A DNA stretch of 58,431 nucleotides, filler included, from Sluysia triapertura (Eukaryota): assembly GCA_046118255.1 (NCBI GenBank). It is 4 parts of 4 records of this genome, joined end to end, with 100 filler letters (N's around TTAATTAATTAA, not from the genome) between each part and the next. Parts side by side here need not be neighbours in the genome. Positions count along the whole stretch, not along the records: positions 1 to 16,310 come from JBJNIA010207034.1; 3 more parts are not named here. One strand, given 5' to 3'. Both the position numbers and the translations under genes were made by a program. The notes under the pieces were generated by a model. That model worked only from the letters and a program-made list of their open reading frames with translations, did no database searches and was not told the origin of the DNA. Positions 1 to 57,909 of this stretch are shown in pieces; the stretch's first letter is position 1; the number at the start of each line of letters is the position of its first letter.

Positions 1-563
1 GATTAGACCGTCGTCCACTAGTGACGTAAATCGTTTTCTAATCAGCCGAACTTATCTCCAGAGAAACATTTTGTAAGTAGGTTCTATCTTTGTAGGAACA
101 CTTGCAGAGTGATTACTAAAAAATAGGAGGATCCGAAAATGAGGTTGAAATGTTTGTGAAATTGTTTGTTTGGGAGTGAGAATCTTAAACATTATCCATC
201 AAAAAATTGAGTGTGAGGAATTGAAAATTAATTAAATTGTAAAACTAAAGTTAAATTCATTATTTTTAAGTATGACAATAATAATAATAAATGTTATTTT
301 AATGTACAATGTGATTCATGAAAAAATAAATCGAGTAGAGCAAAAGAAAAAAAGAGAGCTGATTGTTAATCGAATTTTGTTTTCGTTGACAGGTTGTACC
401 ACGTAAGTGTGAAAGTCGTATTAGTCGGTTTAATCTGTAAATGAAGTTTTGATGATTTGATGATTCCTGATTGTGAGTTTGAAAGTGATATAAAAGCGAA
501 TACTTAAAAAATTAACAACACAATCGATCATAGCGTAATGTAATGAGAAAAAAGATAATCCAT
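1..563 (-). pseudogene. Decayed signal-peptide-bearing glycoprotein-like ORF (copy A; runs off the window start)
   Basis: ATG at 563 reads MDYLFSHYITL*SIVLLIF*VFAFISLSNSQ..., a hydrophobic N-terminus, followed by several NxS/T sequons. Clear nucleotide homology to 43540-43887 (shared aaaactaaagttaaattcattattttta and tcgagtaga). Confidence 0.35.
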
Positions 564-2119
564 GACTATGGTAATGTTTCTTTATTATTTTTTTATTTTA
601 ATCATTAATTTTATTAAGTAAATAACTTTTGGGGAAACATTGAGTTTATTTTTAAGTTATCGCCAATTAAACCTGAATTTTTGAGAGGCTCCCTGCCCGA
701 ATTCTTTTGAAATATTTTTTATTATAAATTTAATTTAATTTCAAGTTTGATTTTTATTAAGTGATTTGATAATTTTATTTTTGGAAGACCCTTTGTCCAG
801 ATTATTTTGTAAATCCTTTTTGCTATTAGGGTAAAACAAGGCTGTTCGAAATTATGTCTTTATTATTATCAAATTTTTAGATATTGATATTTTTTAAGTG
901 TTGTTGCATTACCTCTGGTTTTCCCGTGGACATATTACTGCGTGCTTAATATTCCTAAATAACAGACTATTGTTGATTTTTGATCATAGTTAATTTGCTT
1001 ATATTTTTGTAGTCATTATAGTATTGAGTTGTTTTTTTCCTTATTTGAAGATAATAAATAATTTTTGGGTTGAATAAATATTATTAAGATAAGAAATTTG
1101 TGATAAATGTACTTGATTTAGTCAATATTGAATTCACTTGAGATTTTATTTAAGTGACTTAAATTAATATTGGATTATTGTTATTATTGATTTAAGACGT
1201 AACAGTATTGTACTTGTTAATTGAATTCGTAAAGACTTTAATTTATAATTAGAATTTGCATTTATTATGTGAACACTGAAAATTTACTGCAATCAGAGAA
1301 TAATCAATAATTTGTACCTATTTTACGATTACTGAAAATATATCGAAATTTAGAACTAATTTAATTATCGATTTATTGTTAATAATTTTGAAGAAAGATG
1401 CAACATTATTAATACATTAAGTATTAAAATAGTATTAGCAAATAACTTCTAAAATTTGAAGATTGTTAGTAATTAATTTTAATTTTAGTTATTTGCGAAT
1501 AAAATTATCGTTCACATTACCTTAGTCAATGGAATAATTACACTAAATATGTATCCGATTCAATAATTTTCTTAAAATTCATAGTAGATGTAATATAGAT
1601 GAAATATTCTGTCCATTGAACATGAAACAAATTTCAATCATTCTGTTGTATTTATTAAAATATATGTAAAAATATTAATCTCAAATACAATTTTAAAATT
1701 TTTATCTCAAATAAATTAATTAAATAATCGTCAAATCTTTTTAATAATGATTAACAATAACTAAATACCAAAATCAAAATAATCAAAAACTTCTATATAT
1801 TTTAATAATCACGATAGGAAATGTAATCTACGAAATGTTCTTTATTCACAATGTCTTTCTAATAAATACCAAATAAAATAAAATTATTGAAATATAAATC
1901 AACCATTTCACAAAACTTTATATTCAATTCAAATCCAGTGGTAGACAACATGATTTAATTGATAACAATATTGATCCTTATATTTTATAATAAACAAAAT
2001 TAAAAAATCAATATTAAAAGTTAAACCGAAAAAAAGGATCGTGATAAGCCACCCTCAGTTCAATCATTGGTTAATAAACAAGATTAATGATGTTAAATGC
2101 TCCAACCGGGATACGTGCA

Positions 2120-2607
2120 CATTTTCAAAATGTACGTTTTAATTACAGGTAGATTCGAGCTGTTATTGATACAGGAGCCACTACAACCGTTACGCATTAT
2201 AACTTTCTAATCACCACAAACAATTTATAACCTAGATCAAATACCAATAAACATGAATGGCATGGTACATGGCCAGTTAACTATATTAGATAATTATGTA
2301 CGTGCATTTATATACGTTTAGTAAAACTGCCCGTTTGATTTAATAAATGGTTTAATAAATTAAACGATATAGTAATCCATAATAAGTTCGGTTTTATAAA
2401 ATTTCTGCAAGGTGTACAAATGATAATACCGCAAGTTGTTGTCCTACATATTGGCGATGAGATTACTTTATATGAAACTCCGATTCAGGCTCCAACAACA
2501 GCACCGAACTTCGAATCTACTAATCCCGTATTGACTTCTTTTCGATTATCCGATGTGCTATGGGAATAATCATCAATTGACTCATCACGGACGTCCGTGT
2601 TCTAGTG
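2120..2607 (+). pseudogene. Retropepsin-type aspartic protease, disrupted
   Basis: IRAVIDTGATTTV at ~2152-2190 (catalytic D-T-G-A). After a frameshift it reads GQLTILDNYVRAFIYV**NCPFDLINGL, matching the C-terminal hhG motif of retroviral-type proteases. Confidence 0.7.
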
Positions 2608-2648
2608 AACTTTCGGATTCATAGGGAATTGACTCTGATGACGCAATA

Positions 2649-3754
2649 ATGCTTACTTTTCTTAAGATAAACAATCATAGTATTAAAAATCATTTTGGAC
2701 ACCATTACTAGTATTGATAGTTTTATTTGTGTCTTTAATCGGTATTGTCAAGATGACAGATCTTGTGGATGAGGCATATAAAAATCTAGGCAATGCCATA
2801 AATAACTGAAAAGAACAGAACATTTATAATGAGTATTGCGAAATAAAGTTTATCTCAAAGAAAATGTTCTTACGTCATAAACTTGATATTAACTGTATTT
2901 ATTTGGAATCATTGCTAATTGGTAAGCCATACCACATAAACAGCATGCTTATAGATCAATGCTAATAGCATTTGCACTAGATACAAAAAGAAACACTCGA
3001 AAAATACAGCGAATAAATCAATAGATAAACATTTAAATTGTAAAGTTAATGTTTTCCCTAGCGGTATGCTGCACAACATCGTAATATTAATAAGTTAATA
3101 GTTATTTCTTTAATTCTTATAGTAGTATATGCAATTTGGATTAAATTACACAGTTGATTTTAGTAGGAAATTACGCATATTTACAGTAAATAAAAATTTA
3201 ATACCTTTAATGATGAGAATGATTACTACAGTACAATGTAATATACATGATGTACGCATTTACAAGACCGAATATCTTGAATTCCGAAATTATGACACAG
3301 AAGTCAAAGTTAAAGTATTGAAAAATGATATTCAAGTTAGATTTACGTGCTTAAAACCTGCCAAACTTAATTTTAGTTCATGGAATATCCAACAATATTA
3401 TATCAACAATACAGTAAATCCTGTTGCTATATGCTCTGATTTCTGACCTATCCTCGGCGAGATTATAACAATTGCATATCACACTAAAGGGAACAAGGAA
3501 ATATCTATAGTTATCATAAATGCTAAAAAATGATCCAGTGATGTTAATATTAATTTTAACCACAATATTATTTATCATCGCTCTGGCAATAGTTATTCTT
3601 GTAATCATTACTTTTGTATCAAATAGATGTAGGCATCTTAATCATAACAATGACGATCGACGTACTATCCCACAGAGGTAATTTTGAACTACCACCAGGA
3701 TTTCCATTGGCCCCACCCCCTGATTATGGATATGCAACAGGTAATCACTCATAA
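2649..3754 (+). pseudogene. Env-like type-I membrane protein, disrupted
   Basis: Hydrophobic N-terminus and Cys-rich segments (FICVFNRYCQDDRSCG); includes ORF 3129-3446. TM helix TTILFIIALAIVILVIITFV at ~3560-3620, then a tail ending ELPPGFPLAPPPDYGYATGNHS* after a frameshift. Confidence 0.5.
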
Positions 3755-3775
3755 TTAATATACGGTGGTTGACAA

Positions 3776-4530
3776 ATGACAAGTTTACAATCAGTTCTGT
3801 TAGCGTACGTATGTAAAACATGCATAATTAATACACATTCAAAATCTATAATTATATTACGACCACGAGTAGCACTTTAAAAGCACTTCAGCGAAATATA
3901 TACGCAGAGTAACACAACTAAAATCACTAATATCTCTGTGTTGTATAACTAATTAGCGTAAGTGTGAATCAGACATAAGCAGAAATGTCAGTCATTGAAT
4001 TGTATTTTGCGAAGGTCTCGTGGAATATCAATTATTTCATGTTACCTTAACTTTAGAAATTGAGTATGAACCAAATCAAAATTCGAGAATTATATAGGTA
4101 CATAATTTATTTTTGATCAACTTTCAAGAACTATTGAAATCGCAATGCTTTTATATCGAGAGAGTAATAACTTCGTTCGTATAACAAATCCACTAATAGA
4201 AAATATTATATTAATTGCCTATAAATTGGATAAAGCAAGTCACTATGCATTAATACTCCCTGACGCTAGGATCCATCTACTTTTGTGCCAGATCATAATC
4301 TTACATTTATCGAAGTTTGAATTTTACACTAGAATGAAATTTATGATACTATGGAATTTTGACCAAATATAGAATATGTGACTTACAAGTACCTATTTTG
4401 GATAAACCGGATATTATCAGTTTCAACACCAGCTACTACTACTTTGAATATATAAAATACTATACATAATGCTACAACCATAGGTTATCCTATCAGACCA
4501 AATAAGAATTTAAGCTTACATTAAGAAAAT
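3776..4530 (+). pseudogene. Decayed orphan ORF between the env-like gene and ORF-X
   Basis: ATG at 3776 just after the env-like stop (MTSLQSVLLAYVCKTCIINTH, CxxC). Coding-like composition, including ORF 4145-4372, with multiple stops. Confidence 0.3.
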
Positions 4531-4552
4531 CATTTACAAGTAAATAAAACAA

Positions 4553-5700
4553 ATGACTATAATAAATTTCTATTACGTCATATTTTGTTACTACATCCTA
4601 ACCTCATTTCTTTTCGTTACGTCAATAATACATGCTGTATTTCAAATTCATAAGTTTTATTTGTTCATTAGGCATAGGAACCATCTTTTTATTAAAGCAT
4701 GTATAGAATATAAAATACAAGTAAAGATATCTCATATTTGCCGACAGCTGTTAACTATCCATTTTCAGTCACAAAAAGAGTGTTACTAAACTCGTATTCT
4801 ATTTACTTAGGATATTTATCGTAATATTATCATCTTACACCCATGTTCTGCCTCTTTCTGTTTACGATAAGGACCGCCTCATCTTTATGGCTTTTCAATA
4901 TGCTATAGATTTCATAAGTCTCATATTACTTGCATCGCCTACACCACTCACAGTAGGCAGTTTCATACTGAGGCCGTTTCTAGAATTTCCTCCGAAATAT
5001 TCAGGCGATAACTGATATCGACCTTAGAGAGGCTAAGGATATCGACGATGTTAAGCCACATCTTACTGGATTTTTGAATAAAATCCTGGTATAATTGAAT
5101 CCCAGTTTCCTCATCGAAGCTTTGAATCTTCCTTTTGGAACTAAGGAGCATAATAAATCTTACTAATCATAATCTTTTCCGTAGAGGATAGTTTGTTGAG
5201 AGCTAGGAAGACGATGAAACTCTTGTATCCCGTCTGTCTTAAATTTACCTTCCGATAATTAGCGAAAGAATTAGTCACATTGTTGGATTTCATTAGGGAA
5301 ATGGACTTGCAATTCATCCAACGATGTAACGATCCCTCTATTTCTACCTCTAATACTAATTCTTTTCCTGTTCTTAAATCAAAATCAACCAATTCGAATT
5401 CCAGGCCTACTCAGATTTCACCAGTACCCCGAACTTTCAAAAAACCTACTCTTCAACCTATTCAAGATCCGCATAGTAATAATCAGGCACAAAAACGAAA
5501 AGCAGCAACACACATGGAGTTATAGCCAGCAGATCTGGACTAGACATTTCAAGATTTCCCTCCTCTGACTTACCGTCCAGGAAAAGTACGACTTCGTCTG
5601 TCACCGAACCGTTACTCAGTCACTTCCACTATCCCGGTTCGATTACTTACCACACATCGATATGATTGAGAATGATCGGACTGATTTCCTAGTTATTTAA
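4553..5700 (+). pseudogene. ORF-X family copy 1 (orphan protein, heavily disrupted)
   Basis: Frames give SYTHVLPLSVYDKDRLIFMAFQYAIDF, *NFLRNIQAITDIDLREAKDIDDVKPHLTGFLNKILV, LRSIINLTNHNL and RKTMKLLYPVCLKFTFR*LAKELVTLLDF, colinear with the 9009-10688 and 37800-38920 copies. Confidence 0.7.
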
Positions 5701-5758
5701 TAATAATTAACGATCCTATATATTGACATTTTATTGTTGATTTGTCGACAAATCTTTC

Positions 5759-6516
5759 AGAAAGGAAAAGTATTTGTTATGACACTTTAATTTTGTATAT
5801 TTTATGTGGTGGCCAACCTTTCACTCGAAATTTTAATTCAACATTACACACGAAATATCACATTTCATAACATTTCACATTTTAATTCTGTAGATGCATT
5901 AAAATTTTAGAAACTTTAAAGCATTTTAAATTCACAATTTCATAACATTAAAACCATAACCAACATCGAAAATAATCAAAAGTATATTTCAAAGTTAATT
6001 CAAAATATTTCAAGTTCACAATTCTTAAACATTCAAATCATTAACATTATTCAAAAACATTAAATTTACATTTCAAAATTATGGTAAAACATCATCATAA
6101 TCAAAATGGAATTTCTTTAACATCTTTAATTAGGTTATTATCTTATTAGGACAGTTATTTATTAATATCTTTTAACACCTTTAACTACGTTGTTATCCTT
6201 TTTAGTTATTACTGAATAAAATCTTTTTAAAAGATAATAAGAACTAAAAGAATTTTATTTCTACGATATGTCAAGATAAACGAATTTAAAAGAATTTTTA
6301 GTCAAGAAATGCTTCAAAAAAAGAAATTGTTAAAAGATAGGAAGATAAACGAATTTATGTACTCATGCATTTTGGTTTATGTTATTTATTTTTATGTTAT
6401 ATTTTAAGAAATACAGGATATAAAGAAAATAAGTTTTACGTAAACTAATTTCATGTATTGTTATTATTTATTATTATCATTATGTATTGTAATTTTATTT
6501 CATTATCATTATAAAC

Positions 6517-6582
<66 letters not shown>

Positions 6583-6900
6583 CATTTGTACTATTACATA
6601 ATTATTTCATATCATTATAATTACCATTATCAAGTATTATTACTACAAACATCCACTATTCATTAGCATTACCCATATTGTCATTGTTCTACTCATTAAA
6701 ATCATCTTTTGTTGTTATTATCACTGTTCGTACTGTCAGTAATGACAGTTTTTCAGTTATCACCCATTATTAAACAACAATTCAATCATCACCCATTATT
6801 AGTCACTATTAAGCTAAAGCAAAATTATTGACCATCCAATCATCATTGTTAGTAGTCTTTGGTATTAGAATTAGCAATAAATACAACAATCTTATTCGAC
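5759..6900 (+). repeat. Polypurine tract plus LTR-like block (type A)
   Basis: atttgtcgacaaatcttt, then purine tract agaaaggaaaag (5759-5770), then TGTTATGAC at 5775. Internal aaacatt..aattcacaat sub-repeats and an (ATT)n tract. The block recurs at 7958-8760. The right boundary is approximate. Confidence 0.55.
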
Positions 6901-7139
6901 AATAATAAATAGATTGTCTCTCGGAAAAAAATAGTAACACAATTACAAGTACTAAAAATAAAATTCATACTTAGAAAATTAATTGAGCTTATTAAAAATT
7001 AACAATAGTCACATTTGCTTTTTAGAGTTAAATGAAATTATAAATTGATAATTTACGAATTTTATCATAAGTTATTAACAATTATCATTAATTGATAATC
7101 ATTTGTAACAATTTATCCTCAACATCGACATCGTTGAAC

Positions 7140-7980
7140 AATGCAATCACTACCGCAGCTACTTCTGAGCAGCTCATATAAGCTGTAAAATTACATCAAA
7201 GATTATTTATAATTATGAGTGTACAGAAACTTGAAAAGAACAGTATTCAATGTTTATCGAATGATAATTCTACCACTGTTATCCACAAATATTTTTCAAC
7301 AAATGATATCATAACCTTGCAAAGTAACAATAATAGAAATTATAGTACAATTGAGTTCTTTGCCAAACATTCGAATGTATTTTAATAGTCCCAATTTCAG
7401 TGAAAATGACATTGAGTCTTGAAAAAAGCATTATGCATCACGATATTAGATTTGACTTTTTTAATCAGTTAAACCTTGATATAGCACCAGATACTGATTT
7501 GACGAGAACGTTATACCGTTTTATGGTAAGATTATACAGCTGTAAAAATAGAACATTTAGACTTATGTCGACAACAATATCATCATGTAAATCACAAGAT
7601 CAGGAATACTCAACATTAGATGTATATCTTCCCAGTATTAAACATAATTTTAATAAAAATCAACAATGAGGTGTGTTAGTATAACAAATGGTCATGATTC
7701 GAATCTTTCATTTCCCACCAGAAATATTTCGTGTAATCGGAACCAACATTTTTTGATGTGTAGACCTAGTAACGATAAATTTGGTGATATGGATCAATTA
7801 AATGACAAGTATAAGTTTACAAAGTATGCACTTTGTCCATTTCAGGCTACTGCATCGGGATCATGTGTAAAGTATGGTGATCTATGCCCTTACGCTCATG
7901 GCTGGAAAGAAATGGTAGCAATTCCGGAAAATTTTCAAGTTCAATTTGGTCATCCTTGTGGTGGCCAACTTTTAGCTTAA
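7140..7980 (+). pseudogene. CCCH zinc-finger orphan gene (frameshifted; ORFs 7400-7669 and 7666-7980)
   Basis: KYALCPFQATASGSCVKYGDLCPYAHG = C-x9-C-x6-C-x3-H, homologous to the finger in 55277-55948. Confidence 0.6.
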
Positions 7981-8760
7981 AGTTAAAATTCTATTTTTTA
8001 TTCACAATATCATAAGTATTAATATTTTATATTCCACCTACTCATATCTATTAGAACCTTTTCATACCTTAAAACATTCAAATTCACAATCTTTCAACAT
8101 CCAAGCTTTATTTACATTCAAAACCATCAATGTTCATTTAAAAATTCATTTAAAACATTATATTCATTATCCCATAACATTAGAACCACAATTATATCTT
8201 AAATCATCAAATATCTACTTCAATATTAGCCCAAAACATTTTAAGTTCACAATCTTTTAATACTCAATATTTTGTATAATCGAAAAACGTTAAACTCATA
8301 CATTAAACTTATTCTAATACAAAAATAACATCACTTAAATCATTTTTAAAAAGAACTCTATAAGAAAATAAATGATAAGAACTTAAGTAATGAAAGAAAA
8401 GAATTTTATTAATTTTATCTGAAGAAATTTTTATGTTAAGAAATATTTATATTCGTCTTTAAATAAAAGAAAGATTGTGTTTCAAAGCTTTAAAGATTTA
8501 TTCATTTTATTTTTATTTTCGTGTTAAGTGTATTATTCTTTAATTTCATAATTATCATTATCACCATTTTATTTTCATCATCATTATCATTATCATTTAT
8601 CATTATCATTACGCAATACTATCAGTAATGACAGTATCAATTTGTACATATCATCCACTGTCATTGCCGATAGTCATACTTATTAAAACATTAATTCATT
8701 ATAATTGCACAGTAGAAATTATAATTTAATTGGTTACTGTTTATGTTACATAAAGTCAGA
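7958..8760 (+). repeat. Second copy of the type-A LTR-like/regulatory block
   Basis: Starts tgtggtggccaac as at ~5806. Same aaacattcaaattcacaat sub-repeats, aaaagaattttatt, ATT/ATC tract and atcagtaatgacagt motif. Confidence 0.6.
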
Positions 8761-9008
8761 GGCATAATCGACGTGGTAGACAGATACGTCGTCTGTATAA
8801 GGCAGGAATATATGAAAAGAAAAATAAGGTAAAGAATCCTTTTTTGAAGAAGGACAATTAAGATATTTTTCTTTTGTTTCCTAAAATATATAAGTTACTT
8901 AATTAAATATATGTAAAATTAAATAAACTAACGATAAAATTTAACCTTTCAAATCTATAAAAATTCACATATCTGCACTTCTATTTAGAATAAACCAAAA
9001 ACAACAAA

Positions 9009-10688
9009 ATGAACAAATCAAATATACAAGCACGCATCATAAACAACATAATTCCATTCTATAACGGAATTGACCGGTTTTGTGGCAATAACGAAACGCC
9101 GTGTCATTTTCGGATCTCAAATATCACCCCTAATATTTTGAAGTGTGAATTGGACGATATGTTCGTCACACACTTATTTAAAATTGATAATATCCAACCG
9201 CCTATTAACGTAAATCAGTTAAGGGGGTTTTCTTTTAATAATAGACCAATAACAATTACGATAGAAGGGATCCCATTGATCACGAACATTAATCCCTCAA
9301 GTAATATTCAAGTGGAGTCAACGGAGTTACCTGCAACATTTGCGGTACTCTTGGCGCAAGTGGAGAAACCTATAGATTTTAAGAAGCGCCCCTTAATTTA
9401 TAATGAAGATAAAATAAATCTCTACAATTGGCAGGAGGGTCTAACTTACTCCCACGACATAGAGACGCCAATGTCGTGCGTAGGATATCTTATTTTTATA
9501 TCTGCCCAATTCGCCTTGGGGTTTGATGACAGGCATCACATTCTCCGAATGTGCTTTATGCCTTACCACAAATTATTTCACGGGAAGCCTTTCTGAGGCC
9601 CCGCATCCGGGTTAAGAATTTTCTAACGGTGGATCATGGTCTGAAAGAGGACCATTTGAAAGAGGCCAAAGATCTTTCGGGCATTAGGGATTTTTGGTTG
9701 GTGGTGTTATATGATAAAATTCTGGTATCTACCTATCCAGAATTAGTAATTAAAACTTTGCAGATTCCCTATAGGTGGATAATGGGAATAATAAATTTAT
9801 CGTGCACAAGTCTATTGCCCCAAACAACGCTTAATCCAATTACGAAAACCCGAAGATTATTAAAATTAATATATCCCTTCCCTCCTAAAACAACTTGCCA
9901 ACAATTAGCTAAGGAATTTATAGAGCTATATAATTTTTTTATATAAAAGAGATCCATCGTTTTTGTCACAAAATCGAGAAGTTGATATTCCTTCTACCTC
10001 CTCTTATCTTAGTACTGATGCGTCTGCTACTAATACTACTACTAATTCTAATACAAATATACATAGTAATATTGACAAGCATGAATCTTGCTCTTCTTTG
10101 CCTTCTATATCCACTGACTTATCCTTAGTACATAAAGGGTGCTGCCTTGATAATAGTTGCAACAAATACGGATTTAGCACTCCAGTTCCTTTCACAGGCA
10201 ACACGCACTTTATATATTAATACAAGACATAAAATAACATCATCATCGAAGTCACCTACGTCATGTCCATCAACATCAATACATATCACGGATAAAAATA
10301 AAGCGTCAAAATGCAATCTGGTTCGTCATCACGGCTTTCACCAACATCTTCATCAAAAATTCAATCTGGTTCGTCATCACGGCTTTCATCAACATCTTCA
10401 TCAAAAATTCAATCTGGCTCATCGTCACAGCTTCCACCAACATTTTCATCAAAAACTAAAACATTATCTGGTTCACCGTCACAACCTCTTTCCAAGCCTC
10501 CACCGGAGAAGAAAAGAAGATCACCATCTCCGTCTGTTGACTTAGACGACATTAGTGATAATAGTGATACTGATAATGTGATTAATAATAATTTAGACTA
10601 TATAGATTTAAATGATGACGACTACCTCACATTTGAGGATGACATCGATGAATTATTATTGTTTCGAAAAAGACATCATAAAAATTAG
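9009..10688 (+). pseudogene. ORF-X family copy 2 (best preserved; about 3 frameshifts)
   Basis: ORFs 9009-9596, 9551-9946, 9963-10220 and 10311-10688 can be joined. The first two junctions are single-base slips in T runs. Globular N-terminal ~310 aa, then Ser/Thr-rich linker, basic KKRRSPSP and an acidic tail. Confidence 0.75.
10311..10455 (+). repeat. 48-bp coding tandem repeat x3 (QSGSSSRLSPTSSSKI)
   Basis: caatctggttcgtcatcacggctttca..caacatcttcatcaaaaatt repeated three times. Confidence 0.9.
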
Positions 10689-10704
10689 AGACCAATTTTT
10701 CGTT

Positions 10705-11520
10705 AGGGAATGTAAATGTAAAGCTAACAAACACACATACTTTGAAAGTTAATAGTAACACACATAATGTAAATGTAATATATCTAATTTTAGATTTAAA
10801 TCAATAATTTTTAAATTATAGAATTATTTAACACAAATTTATGTTTTAATTTTAAATCAATAATTTTTATGTTTTAGATTTAATACAAATTAATGCTTTA
10901 ATTAATTTTTATGTTATGGAATTATTTTGAAAAAAAATGATGTTAGGTAAGTCGTTATCATTTTTGATAAAATATTATTATTTATTATAAAATACGATTT
11001 TTATTATAAAATACAATTAGAAAACACGCTAGGTTTTTCAAATTAAAATTTATTAAAAAATTCATTTTGTTTCAATTATCTTTCAAGGTCATTGGACCTA
11101 TATAAATAGTTTTAAATTTTTGTAAAACGACACAATTAAAACACGTTGAATTCAAACGCCAATTCTTTGACAATTAGTTCTTACGCGATTTTGACTTCGA
11201 GCAGCAACAATAATTAATCCGATTCTATCCTTGCGAAATTTCATCGTTAGTTTGTTTTTTATAAGTTTTCCGTAATATTTAACATTACATTTTTAAACTA
11301 TACTTAAAATCTTATATAACATTGTACAGCTATCTTTTCATGATAGCTTATTAAAATATTACTTAAAATCATTATTTTTTGATTATATTTATAATCAATT
11401 TTAATTTATTATATTTATTACTTTTATTATTCGAATTTGTTTGTAATATATATTTGTGAAATAAAATTTTTATAATCTGTTATTCTAAATTTACAATAAA
11501 CTTTATAAAGTACCGGTTCA
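10705..11520 (+). repeat. Short purine tract plus LTR-like sequence (type B related)
   Basis: gaccaattttt..agggaa then TGTAAATG at 10711. ctatataaatag...acacaattaaaacac...ttctttgaca (11098-11172) matches 39295-39375. AATAAA near 11460 and 11496. Confidence 0.5.
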
Positions 11521-11789
11521 ACGTAAGAACCGCATTAAAATACTTTAAGTTTACAGGTTCTTTTTCTGAACCTTATTAAAATCTACATAAAAAAGGTTCG
11601 TTTCATCGAATCTGATTAAAATCTGATTTTTAAACATTTAAGTTCTTTAATTAAAGACCTCCTTATAAATTAACTAGAGCTTTTTAGCCAGTGAATATAA
11701 ATCCAACGGTTGCCCATTAAGTTAGTAAGCCCAATACGTTGGTGGACTCACCTATCATTTTTTAAGTTTTATTCTAAGCACACATTTTC

Positions 11790-12153
11790 TTACATTATTG
11801 AAAACCTGATAAAAGTATGGCATCACGATGACAAGATCAAAGACTTGTGTCCCAAGCTCATCCGTGGCATGCCTTTAAGGATCAAGAAATTATTGGATAA
11901 CAAAGTACTGCTACAGTAGTTTGTACACATTTGATTTGTGTTATGATTCTACATGAATAAAATTTCAGTATTTTTATCTATTATTTTTCTTTCACCAGAA
12001 TTTTTTAGAGAAAGCAGTTATTTTCCAACATTTTCCGCGACAATGTTTTTATACACTTGTATTTATACACTTTGGATTAAGTTTCAAGTATCCTTGAAAA
12101 ATGTTGAATTTATCACAAAAATGGTCTTTAGTCTAATAATTTGGCCACCACTG
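11790..12153 (+). mobile_element. Tc1-family transposon, 3' fragment
   Basis: [36 protein letters not shown] resembles the Tc1 transposase C-terminus. It ends in the TIR ctaataatttggccaccactg plus TA, the same TIR as at 44226 and 45259. Confidence 0.8.
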
Positions 12154-12226
12154 TATAATTATTATTTTCATATGAAAAAATTATTTTACATATTTATGAA
12201 TGTACTTATATTTAACTTTAAATTAA

Positions 12227-12434
12227 CCCTTTCAATACGACTTTTGGTCAGTGAAGATATTTCTATATAATTTAACTAAATATGCTCTAAATAAATAAAG
12301 GAACATGTTTACATAATTTCAGAAAAAATGCCTTAGAACACATATGTCCCTGCATTAGTTTAATTATGGGACTTTTCGCACCAGTAATTTTTGAACGTTC
12401 TCTGGAACTTATATATCCCACAGTATTGAAAGGG
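12227..12434. mobile_element. piggyBac-type MITE
   Basis: TTAA|CCCTTTCAATAC ... GTATTGAAAGGG|TTAA: perfect 12-bp TIR starting CCC, with a TTAA target duplication. Confidence 0.85.
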
Positions 12435-13502
12435 TTAAAAAAGCACAAAAATTTCTACCAAAAAATTCTTATACATATTTCATTCAAATAAAGAAAAGGA
12501 ATGTATCATTTGTATCATAAAAATAAGTATTACTGGAGATGTTTTAATAAATCTGGGAATCATGAACAATAAGTAAAGGTAATAAATGAAGTGAAAACAA
12601 TAAGAGATTGAACAATCTCATTTTTTACAAGATCTTTTTAACAAAATTATACTTGGAGAAGATTTTATAAAATGTGATTCAATAAGTAACTATCCAAACT
12701 AATGGAAAAAATCCAAGAGATGTTTTGTGGACGTTCCACTTTCTTTTTATTTTATTAAAACTTTGTCGAATTTTTACATAAAAATTCAATGGAAAATCTA
12801 TTTGCTAATTTAACTGAAGTAATTTACATAGAAAGCCTGTGAATTGTTACAATTTATTTCAGAATGATAAAGATTATGCTTAATCCAGTGATTAGACATT
12901 TTTATTCTTTGTTAAAATCAATTGTTATTTTATTTTCTGTCAAAGAATTCCATATGCTTTTATTATACAAGAGCTGATCCACTAAATGTTTTAATGGTTC
13001 TCCACTAATTTAACTATTCCTTAAATACAGAAAATGACCGTCACTTTTCATCAGTAAATTCGAGTAACAAAATAAATTAAAATACACTGAGTTTGATTTA
13101 ACATGCACTACATGCCAAATGATAGGGATTATAAAACGGTGCACCTTAGGAACCAATTTGAGGTAACTACTTACCTGCCACCAACATCGACCGTTTGGAT
13201 GCTAAATATTTTATTGAATTTATTCATGACTCATGTATATATTATATACTATCATTAATTGATCTGATTGTAAGCAATTACTAAGTAGTATGAATCTTTC
13301 AGTTTAATTAGTGATTATTTTTCAAATTCAATCAAAAATATAATTTTCATAAAAAAATAAGCTTGTTCAATGTTAACATTGTCACCTAAAGTTTTTCACC
13401 CAGCTAATGTTAAGATACAGCTCTATAAATGTTTTAACTGATATAATATTTTGATTCAAAATGTAAATAAAACGTAAGTATTATTAACCAAAATAAAATT
13501 AC

Positions 13503-14518
<1,016 letters not shown>

Positions 14519-15948
14519 CTGGAATAATAAATTCACCTTCAAATAAATGTTACTAAAAATAAAGTTGAAAAAATAAAATTTTACTAAGAATAAAAAAATT
14601 AAATTAAAAAGTAAGTAATAAAATATTATAAATATTATAAATGAAGTTTAAAAATTTCATATTATTATATTTAACGCTATAATATACAACTTTGAAGTAA
14701 TTATAACTTTTTAAAACAAAAAATAAATAAAACAATTTTCAAATTATATTATAATTAAGGTTCTAAAATATTTTAATATTATGCCTTATTTTGAGTAATA
14801 AAGACCTTTCTTTAAACTTAAATTGATTTCAATTTAGTCGTGATGATTTTAAATTTTGTGTTAATAAACTAATTTGAATGGTGAGTTTATTACTTTTCAC
14901 AAAGAACATAATTGGAATTTATGCAATAAATAATAAATTATGTAATAAAAGCAAATAATTAAGCACATGTAATTATGTTATTATATTTAGCGAAATTTTT
15001 CCTTTAGTATTCTTCTATGCTACTACTACTATTCTAATTTCTTGGTTATCATACAAAAGATCTCTAGTGACTTAGAGACATTTGTCAAATCACAGATATT
15101 AAGCCAGTAATAAAGAAAATTTCAAATAGTGAAGAATATTTTAATGTATAAATCCGTATAGTAAAATAGTATGTATAAATTAACAGGTTTCTATTTTGAG
15201 GCTAACTTACCGGAATTCATAAAATACAATAATTTGTTATAAATTTGGTTTCTTGTAAATTTCTTTTGAACTGTACCCAGTTTACTGTATTAACCTTCTG
15301 TGGTGTTTCAATTATACAAAATTCATTCTACATATTGTCATCTCGTCATATTCAACATAAGTCACAAGTAACAAATAACAAATCACAAAAATTAATATCT
15401 AAAAGATATTATTGTTTTTTACATCCAATATAATTCACAAACAATAAATTATGAATGACAAATTACTAATACAAATTCAATTATACTAAATTTGAATAAT
15501 CAATTGTGTCAACACTAATATTAATTTATCAACATCATAGTCCTTGTTTTTACTATTGTCATTATGAGTCATTATCGATTTAATTATTACTTATTTATAA
15601 ACACATATGGAAATGAGAGTTTCAGTTGAAAGCGTTGTCAGACTTGTTTGGAATGTAAATCAGATAGTTTACATGAATTGTCAAATCAGAAAAATACAAA
15701 TAGCACTAGCATGAAAATTATTTCGAACAGGACGATGACAGCGATATTGACAATGTTGAAGAAAATATTAGAAAAATGAAAAAAAACGTGCAAACAAGAA
15801 GATAACATTGACAAATCTAATAACAGTAATAGTGACAGTAATTATGAATGTGGTGAGTTGATGATGTTGATGATGATGAAAAGTCAATAAGACATAGTGC
15901 TACAGGATATATTACCAAAGTGAAACAGATACATTTATGCATTTATAG

Positions 15949-16276: not shown

Positions 16277-16310
16277 ACATCTCCCAAAACAACAAAACAC
16301 ACATACCATA

Positions 16311-17949: not shown

Positions 17950-18296
17950 AAATCAGGTTCTGGTCGAGATTATGCCGAAAACATAGTATGATATGTGAAA
18001 TGGCTGATAGTAAGGAAACTTATGAGTAAATCCAAAAGTGTAGATAAAAGGTGGCAGAAAAATTGTTAAAATCCAAGATGGCGAGTGCAAAATAGTGAAT
18101 AATAATGAAGTGATGCTGGTTTATATACTAGTCATCAGCCAATAAGAATCGATGGTATGCTCTAGAAACTTACATTCTATTTTTAAAAACGAATTTTCTT
18201 TTTTGGAAAATAAAGTTTTTAAATTATTTTAAAGATTATTATGGTATTTTAAATGATTTGAAGGGTTTTGATGGCAAAATGTTTTACAATATCACA
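17950..18296 (-). repeat. Type-B LTR-like promoter block
   Basis: Minus strand: gaggacaaa..., then TGTGATATT...catcaaaaccc...aagaaaattcg..aaaaatagaa..tctaga..ATTGGCTGATG (CCAAT box)..TATATAAA..CGCCATCTTGG. Confidence 0.65.
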
Positions 18297-21599: not shown

Positions 21600-21855
21600 A
21601 TAAAATGGCCGTTTATCAGACAAAGGTTACAAAGTAGATAATAAATAAAATGGCCTCTATGATTAAATTGATAGTAGTTTATATACGAATCATCAGCCAA
21701 TAAGTATCGATAGAACATTCTAGAAAATTCTTTTCTATTTTTAGAAACGAATTTTCTTTTTTAGAATATAAATTTCCTTTTTGAAAAATAGGATTTTAAA
21801 ATGATTTTTGAGGATTGTGATGGAATTTTAAATGATTTTAAATGGAAACCTCACA
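21600..21855 (-). repeat. Type-B LTR-like promoter block
   Basis: Clear match to 18115-18296 (gtttatatac..catcagccaataag.atcgat..tctagaaa..ctattttta.aaacgaattttc). Starts TGTGA on the minus strand. Confidence 0.65.
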
Positions 21856-25689: not shown

Positions 25690-26348
25690 TTAAGTGATAT
25701 GATTCATGTAGTATTCAAGATGTAATGGCCGGGTTATGATTACATTTAATTTAAAATTGGGCGTTAAGATATTATTACAAATAAAACCAGACTTAAGGTC
25801 TGTACAAACATTAGTATAGTTATTGTTAGTCTCTTTAATGAAAAATCGAAAACACAAATAACACTTTATTTTAACCAATTCAAAAGAAAATTTTAAAATG
25901 TAGCACATTGCGGTTTCATCAGTACAAGAAAGGTATAAGTAAATAATACATAAAGGTACATATAAGTCAAAAACTAAAAATTTTACCAAATAACGTAAAG
26001 TTTGAAAAAGCCGAGTTGGAACGAATTCTCCGCCGGGTAGATGGAAAACGAGACACACGTAGTGCTCGAACAATTTTTTGAATTGAATTTGTATATCAAA
26101 AATAAACACATTGTCTTTGTTATTTAGAAAATTGAATAAATCATCAATCCCTAAAATACAATGTAATCTCAATGGTATTGTTGGGATTAAACGGTTCAAT
26201 GGTATGCTTGAATTTATATTTACATCTTGGATAGGTAACGCTTTAATAACATATGAATCTTCAGTTAGTTCTACTGATCCCGCTTCTTTAGAAGAATCAC
26301 CTTTAGATTTCTGCATAAAACGATCGTTCAGTATTAACTGTTTATGAT
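25690..26348 (-). CDS. Hypothetical protein (probable exon(s) of an unidentified gene)
   Basis: 208-aa ORF in AT-rich DNA, preceded by an acceptor-like ttttacag at ~26350. No motif recognised. Confidence 0.35.
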
Positions 26349-26927
26349 CTGTAAAATTTGAAAAGCATTTTAAAATAATTTTTAAAATTTTTACTTTGTA
26401 CAGTATATAGTTTTCTGTACTTTATTTAGCAACAGAGCACTCAGCCAATGACATCAAATGAATAAAAACAAAAATCTGGTTATCCAAAAACAACGTAATT
26501 AGTAAGTAATCAATTAATATCTGACTCAAATTTATTCTCTTCTAATAGTTTATTATATGAATTTTTGTAGATGCGAGCGGCTATGCACACGAAAATACGG
26601 CACATATAATAACAACCGGATAACTTCAAAACCGAAAACGAAAAATGATGAAATAATTGCATTTACAGAAATTTATACACTGTTTGATTACTTATTGATA
26701 ATAAATGTTTTATTATCTAATGAAAATTTTTTGTAAAATTTATTTTTTCCATATAATTTCACATTTTCAAAACTGTTTAAATCTATATAAATAAGAACAA
26801 AGAGAAGGCATAAAATGTCATTTTAACTATATCCAAATTCAATCATAGATATAGAAATGACAATGATAAATTTTTTATGCTATAAACTGTTGTAAATAAA
26901 TAATTTCTAATGTATAATTATGGTAAC

Positions 26928-28663
26928 TTAAACAATAGTTCCGGGCCACGAAACCAATTTTAAGTTCAAAGGAGATTCTGCTGATTTGAATAAACTGACA
27001 GCTTCACTATGAGCTACATTCGTTAATTGATGGCCGTTTATTGAAATTAGAATATCACCACATCTGAAATTCAATTATTATTTGTCAAAATTCTGAAATA
27101 CTTAAAATATTTACAGAAATATTAATAAACAAAAATTTTGTGAATTTTATAACACATTCGGTCGCTTGTTATAAGTTTATTTAAAAAACTTTAAAAATAG
27201 AAAGTCAATATTTTACCACATTTTCATAAAGCTTCTTTAATATTTAAAAATTGTGTTCAAAGATGTCAGATAAAGAACAAACAGGAAAGTAGTTTCTCAT
27301 GGTTTCAATAACTGCAAACATCTAAGAAATATCATAATAAAGAAAATGAATTTTAGATATTGTTAGTCATATATTTACTTAAGACTACAATGAAAACAAT
27401 GAGATAATGGTAAATCTAATTGATAAAATTTAATTATTAGAAATTAATTAATTATTAATTAATTAATGATAAATAACTAATTGTCTCATATTCCATAATT
27501 GTATTTCGTATTTCATCATTCTACATTTATTCCATTTTAAATAATAATTCTAACACGAACATTATGTATAAATAAACTTGAAAAACCCGTTTTAAAATTG
27601 CATTAAAAATGATTAATTACAAAATAATTTAACATTGTTAACTTTTTTACAATAGTTATAATGTTTTTATCTCAAAAAACTTATATTAAAATGGCATCTG
27701 TTACATTGTACAAATTAATCGAAACTTACAGTATACTAAATCCAAAGATAATATTATTCGTTTATGGCCTTTAGAAGACAAAACATTTTTAACGAATTTT
27801 TTGTTGATATTTAAAGACAATCTACAAAATTTGATTTGTTTAAAAATAATTAACAGTTGGGTTAATAGAATTATGATATACAAGAAGATACAAGATTCTT
27901 TTTAAGTCACTGGTCACTTTTATTTTTTGAGTACATTTATATATTTTATAATAAAACAGCATAAATAACAATTCACGCGACACGTATCATTACAATATTG
28001 AAAATAATTATTTTAGCGAGAAATCTGGCACAGTTTTAATCAGATTTTTTGCAGTGTCCGTACTAATTTGAAATTAAAAGTTTGCACTTTATTTAAACCT
28101 TTAAAACAGAATCAATGTAAAACAAATAAGATTGTAGCGAGTAATTATTTAAAACACAAAAAGTCATTGCATAACTTAATTGTTATAGTTTTTATTTATG
28201 AATTATAAATAGAAATACTACTCATCATTATGTACTAATTAATTTACCTTAACATGTTCCGTTTTTAGATATTCAAAATTATACTGTTTTATTATCATTA
28301 TAATTTATATTTTAATTCTAACTTTAATCGACCATTTTTATAAGCTGGCGATCCATATACAATAGATTTGATCATGATTGGTCGATATAATGGTTCTCTT
28401 TGCACTCTTAAATCAGTTTGGACGAAATTGTTCTGATCAAATTCTGAACTTTCACTCGATTGTAACGAATTTAATGTAACCAAGTCGTTACCACCAACTA
28501 TACTAAAACCTATTGAATTTGTAACAGGATCACGTGCTAATGTGATTGTACGTGGAATTTGACAATAGGTCGGTAATTTTAACCAATAGAGCCAAGTTGG
28601 TATGAAATTTTCACTATTGATTGTAGTTGAAACATTAGGCACCTTTAAAACACGAACTATCAC
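26928..28663 (-). CDS. LNX: LNX (Ligand of Numb protein X)-like PDZ protein, last two exons (28663-28323, 27063-26928)
   Basis: FIPTWLYWLKLP..ITLARDPVTNSIGFSIVGG..IKSIVYGSPAYKNGRLK|CGDILISINGHQLTNVAHSEAVSLFK..LKLVSWPGTIV*. The PxWxxWLxLP linker and terminal VSWPG are characteristic of the last PDZ of LNX1/2. GT-AG phase is consistent. Confidence 0.85.
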
Positions 28664-30742
28664 CTGAAATGACGAACATCAAAGTGATAATATAACAAGT
28701 TTAAAATTAAAACTGAATAAAATAATTTTATAATAAATTTTGTGTTTGTATCAAAATTATGGTCCACAAAATGTCATGCTTGTGCTTATCGCTAGTTAAA
28801 TAATGATTCATATCAACTTTATTCGAAATCTAATAATAATAATATAATATCCAGACATTTTAAAGTCATTAGAAGTAATCAATAAAAATAATTCATTGAA
28901 AAGACTTTTTAAGGTCAAGTTAACGAAGAACATTAAATTTAAAGGTCAAAACATTGTTATAGAAATCATTTAGCACACTAACAAATCAGTAGGAAGCTCA
29001 TTAGTGTTACCATAATACTTTTTCGGATACAATTACATTTTGAAAAACTTGTCAATTCTTCATCACTGCAAATAACTCAACAATTCGACAATCATATAAC
29101 GCTATACTATGGCATAATAAAATCGAGCGAACCTTTTCTTCAGAAATATTAAATTGTTCCAAATAGACGCTAGTTTATGTTATAAAGGTCTTCGGAATTT
29201 TAAATAGCGAAATAAAATAGATTCAACATTTAATTAAAAAAAATTTTCAACCACCATTTTAAACTGGTAAATAAAATCAATTTAAAATATTTAAATTTTA
29301 TTTAAAAATAAAACCTTTAAATAATTAAAATACAACTTAATATTTCTAAATACACTTGCCACACCTTGCTATCTGTGATAGAAATATTTTAGTTATTTAC
29401 TATTTAAATTATATGAGTACCATTTTGAAAATCACATTTTAAAATATAGTCATTTTGTTGTCATAAAATTTAACAATATTTTAATTATTTTAAAATATAT
29501 TTAACAATCTTTATTAATATAATATACACAGTAATTTATCTTAGACATCCGACTTCTGAAAAATATTATCTTTTAAATCCTGTAAATTAATCACGCTTCG
29601 TTGTAAGTCTTGGATTGTAGGTGAACTTCAATAGGTATTTTCTTTCACTTATGAGAGACGGTTTTCTTAATATAATCTGATTTCATCATATATAATTTTA
29701 GAGAATATTGGTTTTGTAAAGTTAAAGTTTTTATTAAAATAGAAGTAAAAAAATAAAAATTATTTAAAATCTAATATGAATAAAATTCTAAAATATCCAA
29801 TATAAGGTACAAATAAATGTTTTAAATAATGCACAAAAAAATGTTATATTTGAAAATTGTGACTTTACAGAAGTACTTTTCTTTTATTTGAAAATAAGAT
29901 AATGATAAAAATGATAAAAAATCATATCTCGATTTAATACCAACATTATATATTGCCAAATATAAATACAAATTAACTATGATTATTGCTATTATTTACA
30001 ATATTATTATTATTATATTATTATATTAACATTAAATTTTGTTTTTTATAAATAACTTTATTTATGCCATTTTTCTTTTAATGTCATACAATAAAGACGA
30101 AAGATGGCAATAAATCGAGATATGGCTATCATAATTTGTATTTGTTAACTAACAAGTTTTACACTATAGACTTAATTTGTAAATTATCTTAATATTGAAT
30201 TCTTCAAAAACCACAATTTAAAATATCAAAAGATTTTATGAATTATAAAAATGTTCAGTACTAAATTATTAAAACTATTGAAAATAAATAAATAATAAAT
30301 AAATAAATGTCAAAAATATAAATCTTCAATGTTTACAAAATCGAGAAAACAAATAAGTGAACATTATTTATCTAATTATTCAAAAATAAAATATCAAAAT
30401 ATACTAAATTATATACTTGCATAATTTACAAGTAAAACGTAAATTCAATTTAAAACTAAATATTTATTTTATTGATTTATTGTAACGATTAATTCTATTG
30501 CACTTTTATTGATGACAGTAAATAATGATGAAAATCCTACATAAATAAAATTGATTTTATGACTGTTACTAATATTCAGTACTAAAGTATAATTAATATA
30601 CTAATAATAATAATAATAATAATAATAAAATTACGGTACATTGGATAATTAATTTAAAATAATACATGAAAAATTAATTTAAGGAATACAAAAATACAAA
30701 TATGCGCTAGCATGAATTGTCAAATATTAATTTTATCTAGGT

Positions 30743-36133: not shown

Positions 36134-39100
36134 TTATGATGAAATTGTTATATGATTGTAGTACCATTCTCGATTATCTTCTAATGTATCTAGAATATGT
36201 TGTGCTTCTGGGTAAACTAATTCGGACCATGTTTCCCACAATGGATGGACAATAAAATCAATGAAGCTGACTTGAGATTTTTCAATGGTAGCGGTTTCAC
36301 GATCACACATTGGGGAAATATCCAAATTATGGCTTCGTTCACGGTCACCCTGGGCAAAAAATTCATTCATTATACGGCTTGTCCAATCACGATAGAGTTG
36401 CAAGGGTTTAGTTGGATTTGACAGGTCCGCGCAATGAACCATGTTTTGAAGAATCTGAAGTAGTTAAAATAAAGAATCATTTTGTTTGTATTATTAAGCA
36501 AACAATTTGTTATCTAAAATGGCTACAAATGATCAGAAATGTTTAAGTAGACAAAAAAGAGAACAAAAGTTATTGTCATCGCTACCCTTTAAAATCAATA
36601 CAAAAAACAATTAAAATCATTAAATTCTTCAAAAGAAAATTCCGTACTAAAAATAGAAAAGAAGTTTCTAGAATGTTCTATAATTGGCTGTGAGTATGTA
36701 TAAATAGCCGCAGCTAATCATAAAGAAACAAAAGAATCATAAAAACATGCCAAATACTGGCTACTAAAACGGACAATGACAAGTGATACTAAACAACCCA
36801 TTAGGAAGTCATTATACTTTTAAATTACTACGAGATCGACATCAATCGTTTTCTTTATTACAGTATCATTCTAGATTACGTATCAAATTCAGAATTACCA
36901 ATAATTAAGATGTGGGTACATTAACGCCATGGTCACACTTTGGATCATACATGACTTTTCTGTGCCAGTAATTACTGAATCAGTGCACAGGAAAAACAAA
37001 CTTAATATCGAACAAGATGTAAGTACCGATAATAAAAATAATTCAACCAGTCTAATTCCAACTAATATTAAATATAGTTTGAACATTACAATTATGTAAA
37101 ATCCTAATTTTTATTTTTATATTATTCCATCCAATTTATAATGATCTTCATAATTTATACTTCATACCATTCTTACGGTTGAAGCTATTTGATTAGACAT
37201 TTTTAATACGAAAATGTACATTTCAGAAGTTTAGCAATATACTAAACTTCGTTTCTTCGTTTCAATAACCGGTCTTATCGATTCGAAAATATACAATACC
37301 TTTTCGTAATATATATTAATAATTTTAGGATTTTGTTAAATTTTAACTAAATTATACTCATTTTTATAATTCTTTAATTTCACGCTATCCGATTTGTTTT
37401 CATCCTCTTCGTAAATATCAAGCCATTTCGATTCCTTGCATCTATTGCCTTCATTTTAAGAACATTTTCTTCTTTTACGATAACTCACCAACTGATTACC
37501 CATATTGTCCACAATTACCTCTTGGAAAAAAAATATTATAAGAATCGGTACAAACATACTTACATTTTTGACACTAAACACATCTATTTTTCTCACCCTA
37601 CACTCTTACTTTTTCACCTGTTCCTACTTTCATTTCTAAACCAGTTTTTCTTAAACCACTTGTTTCACATCTCTCCGCCCTCACGAAGTATCAAAACCGA
37701 CGCAGACGGAGGAGGGAATTGAAGCGTTTCTAAAAAGCCAATGGCCTTCATGAAAAACACGGGAATATATTTTTAACCCTTCTATTATGTACATGTTATG
37801 TAATTCTAGATGGCACAGCAAATGGTAAAATTTTCATCCAAACTACATCTTTTTATGGAGGCATCGACCATTGCCAAAAAGATGTCCCTTCTACTTCATT
37901 CTTAATCTCTAAATCGAGTCCTAATCATCTTAAATCCAAAATTAAGAAGAATTTCGCCCTACATATTTTTATCCTATCTTCCGCTTTCCCTCAGGTCATC
38001 GTCAATGAATTGTTTGGCTTCCCTGCGAACCGTGGCACCATCATTTTTGTGGCCTCACGAGATGTTCTCAGGGTTACCTTAACGATTGACTCTTCCTCTC
38101 TCTTTTTTCGTATTTGTCATTACTCCAACTCATACTATAATAGTGGAAGCCTACAAATATCTCACGACATTTGCTGCACTTTTTCCTATTACTCCAGGAA
38201 ATCTAGATCGTGTCTCGCTCCCTTAGAGAATTTTGACGCGTGGCAAGAATGCTTAATATTTACTCACATCCCATTTCCCCCCATCTTTGAGGAAAATAAA
38301 CTGATCTTTGTGGCTTTCCATCACCTATTCGACGTAAATAATAAGCACCAGAATATTCAGTTGAGCTTCATGCCCTGTAATAGGAAATTTCATTCTATTG
38401 ACATTGTAAGGCCAACAGTTCGAGTCCAAAATTTTTATAAGGAAATACGTGGACTCAATGATCAAAATCTTTCATCGACTAAAGACATAGAGGATATTAG
38501 AAGCTTCTGGCTAGCTTCCTTACACGTTAAATTTTTAGTTTGAAAAAGTTGGTGGAGGGTAATAGTGAAACTCACCAACAACCATCTCGTGTCTTTCTCA
38601 TCAGCCGATCCTTTTCTCAAAGCAGGTCCTAAAGTTATTGTAACCATTTCTGTAACCCTACATGAACCACATTTAAAATTATATTTTTTGTTTGACCATC
38701 TTTCTTTCTCTTTCTTTTGTTTCTTCTGTTCCATAATCACCCTTACTTTCTAACTCTTCTTCTCCACTTTTTCTTCAACTTCTCAATTCCAGAGGTCCCA
38801 CATCGCCAGATCAGTTCATCGAGCATTTTTATGCCCCATCTCCTCCGCATCAAGAACCAATGGTTAGACGCGAGACATCAGTCCCCCTGAGTCGATGTGG
38901 ATGACTCTGAATAATAATAGTTAGGCCCAACTGATACTTTATACTGCGGCGATGGCATTGATATCGACAATTTTTAACTTTTGCAGTGATTTATATAATA
39001 TAATGTTTGATATCATAATAACTACATTATGTGATTGTATATATATCTATATAATTGTTTTTATTGTGTATGCATTTTATTTCTTAAATTCTAAATCTCA

Positions 39101-54617: not shown

Positions 54618-54865
54618 TGTTGGGTTGTCATCAGAACCCCATAAAATATCATAACACTTTAAGATTATTTAAAATCACTTAAAAATCAATTAAAATCATT
54701 TAAAAATTTTATTTTCCAAAATAGAGAATTTTTTCCCCCAAAAGAAATTATTTTTCAAGAAATGAAAATAAAATTTCGAAAAAAGAAAATTCGCTTCTAA
54801 AAATAGAATAGAAGCTTTTAGAATGTTCATTGGCTGATTAATCGTATATAAACTAGCATCAGTTT
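54618..54865 (+). repeat. Type-B LTR-like promoter block
   Basis: TGTTGGGTTGTCATCAGAACCCC..aagaaaattcgcttctaaaaatagaa..ATTGGCTGA..gtatataaactagcatca; matches the 18296 and 21855 copies. Confidence 0.65.
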
Positions 54866-55276
54866 AATGAAATTCGCCTTTTTGAAAATGTTGTATATTA
54901 AGTGATTGTTTATAAAGTTTTGTATAAAATTTGTAGTATAATTGATAATTTTCATTAATATTATTTAAATTAATTACAAGATTTGCATTTGCATACTGTA
55001 TATAATTTAAGATTTTAGCAAAGAACGGAAAAATATACAAAAGTTTATTAAACTTTATAAAAACATATAAAATTTTATTATTTTTAATATTTTTTAATAC
55101 TACAAGCTGGATCCTGCATACGATCTTCACATTACTATGTTGTGCACCTAAAAAATAAACACAATTTATAAAGTTAAGATTGTGCATAAAATTAAGAGTT
55201 ACTTGTCGTTCGCTTCGATTATGTTTATTCTCCACACCTCTAGAAATTCGTACCAGAAGGTCTTTTAAAAGTCCGT

Positions 55277-57847: not shown

Positions 57848-57909
57848 TCTAGTTGTAAGTAGTAAAAATTTTCAATTGTGATCTATCTGTTGTTCTCTAA
57901 TTAGTATAT

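Follow-up and report, generated by a model that had tools for sequence, protein, structure and literature searches.

ORF-X, a family of broken and deeply diverged open reading frames near LTR-like repeats in an AT-rich genome

The three ORF-X copies and their divergence

The window, that is the whole stretch of 58,431 nucleotides that we analysed, contains three copies of an ORF that we call ORF-X, all on the + strand. Copy 2 (9009-10688, +) had been described as one ORF and proved to be broken: its frame changes near 9595, 9945 and 10215-10300, with the core lying in 9009-9596 and 9593-9946. The core is followed by a Ser/Thr-rich linker (10302-10511; 47% S+T) holding three 48-nt repeats at 10308-10451, by a basic patch near 10509-10535 with KKRR, and by an acidic-hydrophobic end (10512-10685) of 58 residues, with 28% D+E and 29% large hydrophobic residues and rich in Tyr, Leu and Phe. 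A splice-acceptor-like pyrimidine tract with AG (8972-8988, +), found by a pattern scan run without a chance control, lies 20 nt before the ATG of this copy. Copy 3 (37734-38970, +) has an open frame of 269 codons at 37734-38543 and a broken tail, and no in-frame ATG was seen 5' of its conserved block. Copy 1 (4553-5660, +) is the most decayed, and its Ser/Pro-rich tail contains KRK. All three copies are now broken and each has a Ser/Thr/Pro-rich tail, in keeping with the Ser/Pro-rich tails of the original prediction. The basic patch plus acidic end that had also been assigned to copies 2 and 3 is present in one frame in copy 2 (KKRRSPSPSVDLDD), whereas the copy-3 string, RRETSVP*VDVDD, joins two frames; the acidic end is clear in copy 2 only.

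Copies 2 and 3 had been said to align at the protein level, and they do so over about 235 residues. Against the copy-3 frame 37734-38540, the first piece of copy 2 (9009-9593) scored 151 (1000 shuffles: mean 33, maximum 53) and the second piece (9593-9943) scored 103 (shuffle maximum 47), both far above the shuffles. By tblastn, the first piece was 27% identical to copy 3 across 194 columns and the second 44% across 45 aa, and the motifs proposed for the pair (FY.GID..C, PN.LK, VN.L.GF, WQE.L...H, FMP...FH and others) were visible in alignment A4. The homology of copy 1 held for three short blocks (4833-4913, 4984-5136 and 5193-5291), but not for its FH block, whose match was not significant, nor for its N-terminal half, which had no significant match to the other copies in any of three frames. 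Against copy 2, 4984-5136 scored 67 (null maximum 45) and 5193-5291 scored 62 (null maximum 49); against copy 3, the match was significant at 4836-4910 (p about 0.003) and at 4984-5055. A pairwise comparison of 21 regions of the window, made in all frames, gave strong matches just for copy 2 with copy 3, copy 1 with copy 2, and two CCCH ORFs, with no further ORF-X copy or shared upstream ORF among these regions. These results indicate that ORF-X is a real protein family, represented in the window by three broken and deeply diverged copies.

At the DNA level, similarity was as faint as had been stated, with no blastn match between copies at E<=1e-4 and an identity of 45% between copies 2 and 3 over 215 aligned codons. 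The differences between these two fell on codon positions 1, 2 and 3 in 113, 89 and 152 of the 215 codons, respectively (p 6e-9), a third-position bias inflated by the use of a protein-guided alignment. Where the residues are identical, the codons differ in 47 of 71 cases. A DNA identity of only 45%, the excess of differences at third codon positions and a frame still open over 269 codons, for which it is difficult to account at this divergence without selection, together argue that the copies diverged under selection and then broke. The purifying selection before decay that had been proposed is thus supported by the codon-position bias, within the inflation given above.

The surrounding DNA has a GC content of about 25%. 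Its host genes contain introns and comprise a Ras-family GTPase, of the Rab family (13459-14647, -), a PDZ protein (26931-28678, -) and a phosphodiesterase (36137-42461, -), an exon of which had PDE4 as its best match (E 4e-55). We read the window as belonging to an AT-rich animal genome, as shown by the host genes with introns, and the 25% GC and compact genes suggest an invertebrate-like host. There were no tRNA genes in the window. Runs of N occur near 16310, 31120 and 46448.

LTR-like repeats and remnants around the copies

The clearest surroundings were those of copy 3. It belongs to an element placed antisense in a PDE4 intron, between two consecutive exons of the gene (36137-36463 and 42084-42284, within 36137-42284, -). 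The element is delimited by LTR-like direct repeats, the 5' one at 36574-36747 (+) and the 3' one at 39147-39338 (+), the latter with a purine-rich tract before it. CCAAT and TATA boxes are present in these repeats. The two are 77% alike (z 36.8 against local shuffles) and share TG..CA ends, so direct terminal repeats of the kind expected for an LTR pair are present at copy 3. The unit is 2.8 kb long and pol-less, and copy 3 is its only long frame. No target-site duplication was visible at its ends, and decay of such a duplication is expected because the repeats are 23% diverged. No primer site abuts the 5' repeat, TGG being found only about 10 nt after it, and a purine tract precedes both repeats, the 5' one included. 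Two minor features were noticed here. One is an 83-bp duplicate (97.6% identical) at 36929-37011, inside the element, and at 41550-41632, outside it in the same intron, which is much younger than the LTR pair. The other is a run with six Arg codons at 37695-37733 (+), in the copy-3 frame and one stop before the open frame, with Cys motifs before it; this run may mark where a small RNA-binding ORF further upstream ends.

Upstream of copy 1, we detected a remnant of a retroviral-type aspartic protease with DTGA (2129-2200, +; PF13975 E 0.012, PF00077 E 0.02, PF13650 E 0.11), with matches that fall below curated cut-offs. Just 5' of it (2090-2145, +), we saw by eye a stretch that resembles a degenerate zinc knuckle divided between two frames. 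A broken ORF that is hydrophobic at both ends (2690-3750, +; hydropathy 2.66 at 2693 and 3.4 at 3553) is an env-like candidate on the basis of hydropathy, for which out-of-frame AT-rich DNA also reaches 3.08, and this ORF had no family match. Copy 1 is on the same strand as both remnants and downstream of both, 2.3 kb from the protease.

This order bears on whether ORF-X might be a structural protein of the Gag kind, diverged beyond recognition and retained by non-autonomous LTR elements because a capsid is all that they need in cis. Such elements would account for copy 3 as the sole long frame between its repeats and for the position of copy 2 about 450 nt after a long repeat, and the C-terminal part of the core was predicted, at low confidence, to be helical. 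However, copy 1 lies downstream and not upstream of the protease remnant, the N-terminal 200 residues look beta-rich by eye, and the protein lacks a CCHC knuckle and has an acidic end. ORF-X had no Pfam gag match, and the structure models were too poor to judge a capsid fold. We consider a Gag-like protein unlikely. Neither an env-type signal peptide nor a C-terminal membrane anchor was found in ORF-X: the core, about 310 residues, is without a membrane segment, its in-frame hydropathy in copy 2 peaks at 1.49, and the end is acidic and soluble.

Right after copy 1 comes a longer AT-rich repeat (5775-6440, +; ends approximate), preceded by a purine tract and a candidate LTR. A second copy of this 670-bp repeat, about 60% alike (z 14.0), is located about 450 nt 5' of copy 2 (7925-8560, +; ends approximate), which makes copy 2 the first frame after an LTR-like repeat. 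No 5' partner of the repeat after copy 1 was found upstream of the protease within the window, and region 1-1900 was ruled out as such by comparison. Between the two longer repeats there is an Unkempt-like CCCH zinc-finger ORF (7657-7980, +; PF25427 E 2.2e-07). After copy 2, a possible degenerate short LTR (10953-11143, +) shares only a TATA plus end motif and its length with 39147-39338. This motif had two matches and none in 100 shuffles, the pattern having been chosen post hoc after both had been seen, and a profile search with short-repeat profiles missed 10953-11143.

The original prediction had ORF-X always as the last gene before a PPT-LTR-like junction. This holds for copy 3 and is plausible for copy 1, but it is weak for copy 2, and "always" is overstated: an LTR-like repeat precedes copy 2 with no frame in between, the element of copy 3 has no other long frame, and the repeats that follow copies 1 and 3 are of two unrelated families. 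Purine-rich tracts were present before 5775, 10953 and 39147; on its + strand the window has 19 purine tracts with TGT next to their 3' end (0.33 per kb), and the scan for this pattern found copies 1 and 2 and missed copy 3. No Pfam match to RT, RNase H or integrase was obtained in 131 open frames of the window (10 plus 121, the latter mostly from the 141 of 278 frames of at least 45 codons that passed a composition filter). Because no RT was detected, the new element family that had been proposed is not placeable.

The short repeat with CCAAT and TATA boxes that flanks copy 3 has three more members, at 18085-18280 (-), 21640-21830 (-) and 54645-54885 (+), all away from ORF-X; they are likely to be solo LTRs, or else to include another decayed pair. 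Small non-coding elements with terminal repeats that we take to be Tc1/mariner-like were matched at 12099-12160, 44224-44262 and 45253-45314. The longer repeat holds GTGGTGGCCAA, which is present also in Tc1-like ends of the window. ORF-X could be carried by another vehicle, such as an endogenous DNA virus, a tyrosine-recombinase retroelement or a DNA transposon with cargo, its LTR-like neighbours being nested insertions or promoter modules. The two unrelated repeat families after the copies, the three occurrences of the short repeat away from ORF-X and the sharing of GTGGTGGCCAA with Tc1-like ends would all fit such a vehicle. Against it, a direct-repeat pair with TG..CA ends closely encloses copy 3, the isolated repeats are explained by solo LTRs, and no recombinase, transposase or viral core gene was matched among the window frames scanned, so that we hold this origin to be quite unlikely.

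Searches for relatives of ORF-X in reads and databases

The evidence on the context of ORF-X was drawn from the window and from one public sequencing run, X1, which may be the source sample. Contigs of X1 were placed on positions 1-12500 of the window, which include copies 1 and 2. At a likeness of at least 80%, 20,197 contig records were obtained, and 1,665 at 99% or more; among the matches listed (8 of 21,109), 6 of the 8 pieces were without difference, with a depth of 14-24. For copy 2, summed depth at 80% likeness or more was 2,448-3,050 in the core and about 330 in the tail; for copy 1 it was 1,125-5,200, and it reached 13,353 at 5839-6255, within the longer repeat after copy 1. Such summed depth is a sign of many relatives and gives no copy number, and AT-rich DNA draws loose matches. 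We conclude that run X1 contains many sequences related to ORF-X copies 1 and 2. Since an identical X1 contig of 1,189 nt covers 4666-5854, the breaks of copy 1 within these positions are in the reads; for copy 2, no identical contig was present among the matches listed (8 of 21,109).

This abundance also bears on whether ORF-X could be a family of host genes specific to this lineage, with dispersed pseudogene copies. Divergent animals commonly have lineage-restricted proteins with a Ser-rich tail, and selection acted on the protein. But very many relatives are present in X1, the host genes here have introns and the ORF-X copies are uninterrupted by them, all copies are broken, and copy 3 is antisense in a host intron between direct repeats. 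A host family is, in our view, very improbable.

Searches for homologues used natural pieces only, taken from broken copies, which weakened them. In a word search of 5.8 billion proteins, none of 213 candidates for copy 3 and none of 45 for the first piece of copy 2 was confirmed; alignment A4 gave 0 of 6,775 against longer proteins, and phmmer against 1.84 billion representatives gave nothing at E<=0.001. The ESM Atlas had no usable match for copy 3. For copy 2 its best value was 0.85, at low recognition, and we rejected a glycosyl-hydrolase-31 N-terminal cluster (0.84) as being at chance level. In Pfam, the only match was DUF2726 at E 0.23, partly in a non-homologous frame, and the core pieces had no Pfam or NCBIfam match at E<=1 or 0.5, DEDDy and GDSL included (NCBIfam and PHROGs: 0 of 3 pieces). 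Among PDB sequences there was no match for A4 and the first piece, and the best E values for the others were 0.021 and 0.41, with no significant stretch. None of 14 and none of 46 stretches was confirmed in viral contigs, and no match came from metagenome contigs (0 of 287), from an exact look-up (0 of 4) or from Rfam (0). Three resemblances noticed by eye, an RNase-H-like GID start, a BTB-like H..P..F motif and a capsid C-terminal motif, received no support from any search.

Structure prediction followed by Foldseek, which had been proposed as a check, was also run. The AlphaFold models, built from two or three sequences only, had pLDDT values of 29.4 and 43.6; from these low-confidence models Foldseek gave 0 matches at E<=0.001 against PDB and viral structures, and the best VIA-align Z was 3.9. 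Because of the low pLDDT, the fold searches are silent on whether the fold is new or known. A confident match to a host or TE domain, which the original prediction had named as grounds for refutation, did not come from the searches made with natural pieces. Text searches of the literature found no description tied to ORF-X, a result that does not extend to Repbase, Dfam or supplements.

Candidate roles and comparison with known elements

The abundance in X1, the LTR-like pair of copy 3, the codon-position bias and the lack of a host or TE-domain match support a mobile-element gene, and ORF-X is most probably an accessory gene of LTR retroelements. What it would do there is less firm. The succession of a core, a Ser/Pro linker, a basic patch and an acidic-hydrophobic end, together with the acceptor-like site and the promoter-like short repeats, points by analogy to a nuclear transactivator of LTR promoters, which we see as a real possibility that stays short of an even chance. 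Nuclear transcriptional activators are built with a basic patch and an acidic-aromatic tail, and the transactivator or anti-silencing factor of the original prediction appears compatible with the composition of the tail. Foamy virus Tas has a basic patch and an acidic end, a layout like that of copy 2. ORF-X has no detected sequence similarity to tas/bel2, a much longer core and no RT for a retroviral placement, and its host looks invertebrate-like.

As a transactivator, ORF-X would be made from a spliced or internally initiated mRNA, giving a protein of about 400-560 residues. Its non-membrane core of roughly 310 residues would attach to LTR DNA, directly or by way of a host factor that binds DNA. 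Nuclear import would be the task of the basic patch, and recruitment of the transcription machinery, as by Tas, that of the acidic end. Pol-less units, such as the one with copy 3, would depend in trans on autonomous relatives for their copying. Taken further, these elements might represent an invertebrate env-bearing LTR lineage with the layout of a complex retrovirus, in which a transactivator of a new family is encoded after env and expressed from a spliced mRNA, and pol-less satellites that have kept only the regulator spread as they switch on their helpers; we regard this larger picture as rather unlikely.

The same positional and nuclear features would also suit an accessory protein of LTR elements that acts post-transcriptionally or in counter-defence, either in RNA export, like HIV Rev and Cer1 CERV, or in countering small-RNA silencing as an enzyme or a decoy, on the model of the DEDDy ORF3 in rotifer elements. 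His and Asp positions are kept across the copies in the core, which could equally mean an enzyme, a CCCH RNA-binding ORF adjoins, and an Arg-rich run lies just 5' of the copy-3 frame. The acidic-hydrophobic end of copy 2, however, is of a kind better suited to an activation domain than to an enzyme, and no catalytic motif was seen by eye in the three copies. This role therefore seems doubtful to us.

Extra 3' ORFs are a known class, which ORF-X resembles by position and, as we infer, by role, and the searches tied it to none of the described groups. Extra ORFs between pol/env and the 3' LTR are described in bdelloid rotifer LTR retrotransposons (PMC5408684), and aORFs between pol and the 3' LTR in plant LTR elements (PMC7264820, PMC11963269); regulatory roles were proposed for some of them (PMC5408684, PMC7264820, PMC11963269). 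Like the rotifer ORF3 and the plant aORFs, ORF-X is on the sense strand near a 3' repeat, is conserved at the protein level without a host counterpart, and is common to diverged elements, including non-autonomous copies. Unlike them, it has no Pfam match to env, GDSL, DEDDy or TRP28, no membrane segment in its core and no upstream pol that we could find. Foamy viruses and foamy-like endogenous retroviruses have accessory genes (PMC7828637, PMC6431247; see also PMC5210030), and, like tas/bel2, copy 1 comes after an env-like ORF and before a 3' repeat. CERV of C. elegans Cer1 is a novel regulator that acts in the nucleus, has a spliced mRNA and exports genomic RNA (PMC10309623); ORF-X, as a proposed nuclear regulator from a spliced mRNA in an invertebrate LTR retrotransposon, is likened to it by description only. 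Planarian Burro and foamy-like elements also carry extra ORFs (PMC6431247), and the giant gypsy element Burro is likewise an invertebrate LTR element with env and several accessory domains; the MATH, BIR, ankyrin and BCL2 domains of Burro had no match here, where the units are short and pol-less.

Having a transactivator of its own is typical of a complex vertebrate retrovirus. For LTR elements of invertebrates, few regulators, CERV among them, have been characterised. If the transactivator reading is true, a family of about 310 residues kept by selection with a nuclear-regulator-like tail, even in a pol-less element, would be a case in which this strategy evolved independently, possibly with a new fold. 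If ORF-X is just a further orphan among the additional ORFs, it belongs to a class already known and frequent.

Other features of the window were recorded along the way. At 56555-57871 (-), an intact, uninterrupted frame of 438 codons without a family match lies directly upstream of the second CCCH zinc-finger ORF (55277-55957, -; PF25427 E 1.9e-06), which has 45-48 nt repeats, and several CCAAT boxes occur at 57900-58070; the two are possibly another mobile-element gene pair. An uninterrupted 243-codon frame at 25690-26421 (-), unrelated to ORF-X, had a weak match to the PF05971 methyltransferase (E 0.011). Finally, a separate repeat family with opposite GC skew was observed at 157-464/43535-43839 and 1306-1405/44777-44881, and the highest summed depth in X1 (192,882) was that of the bin 1-417.
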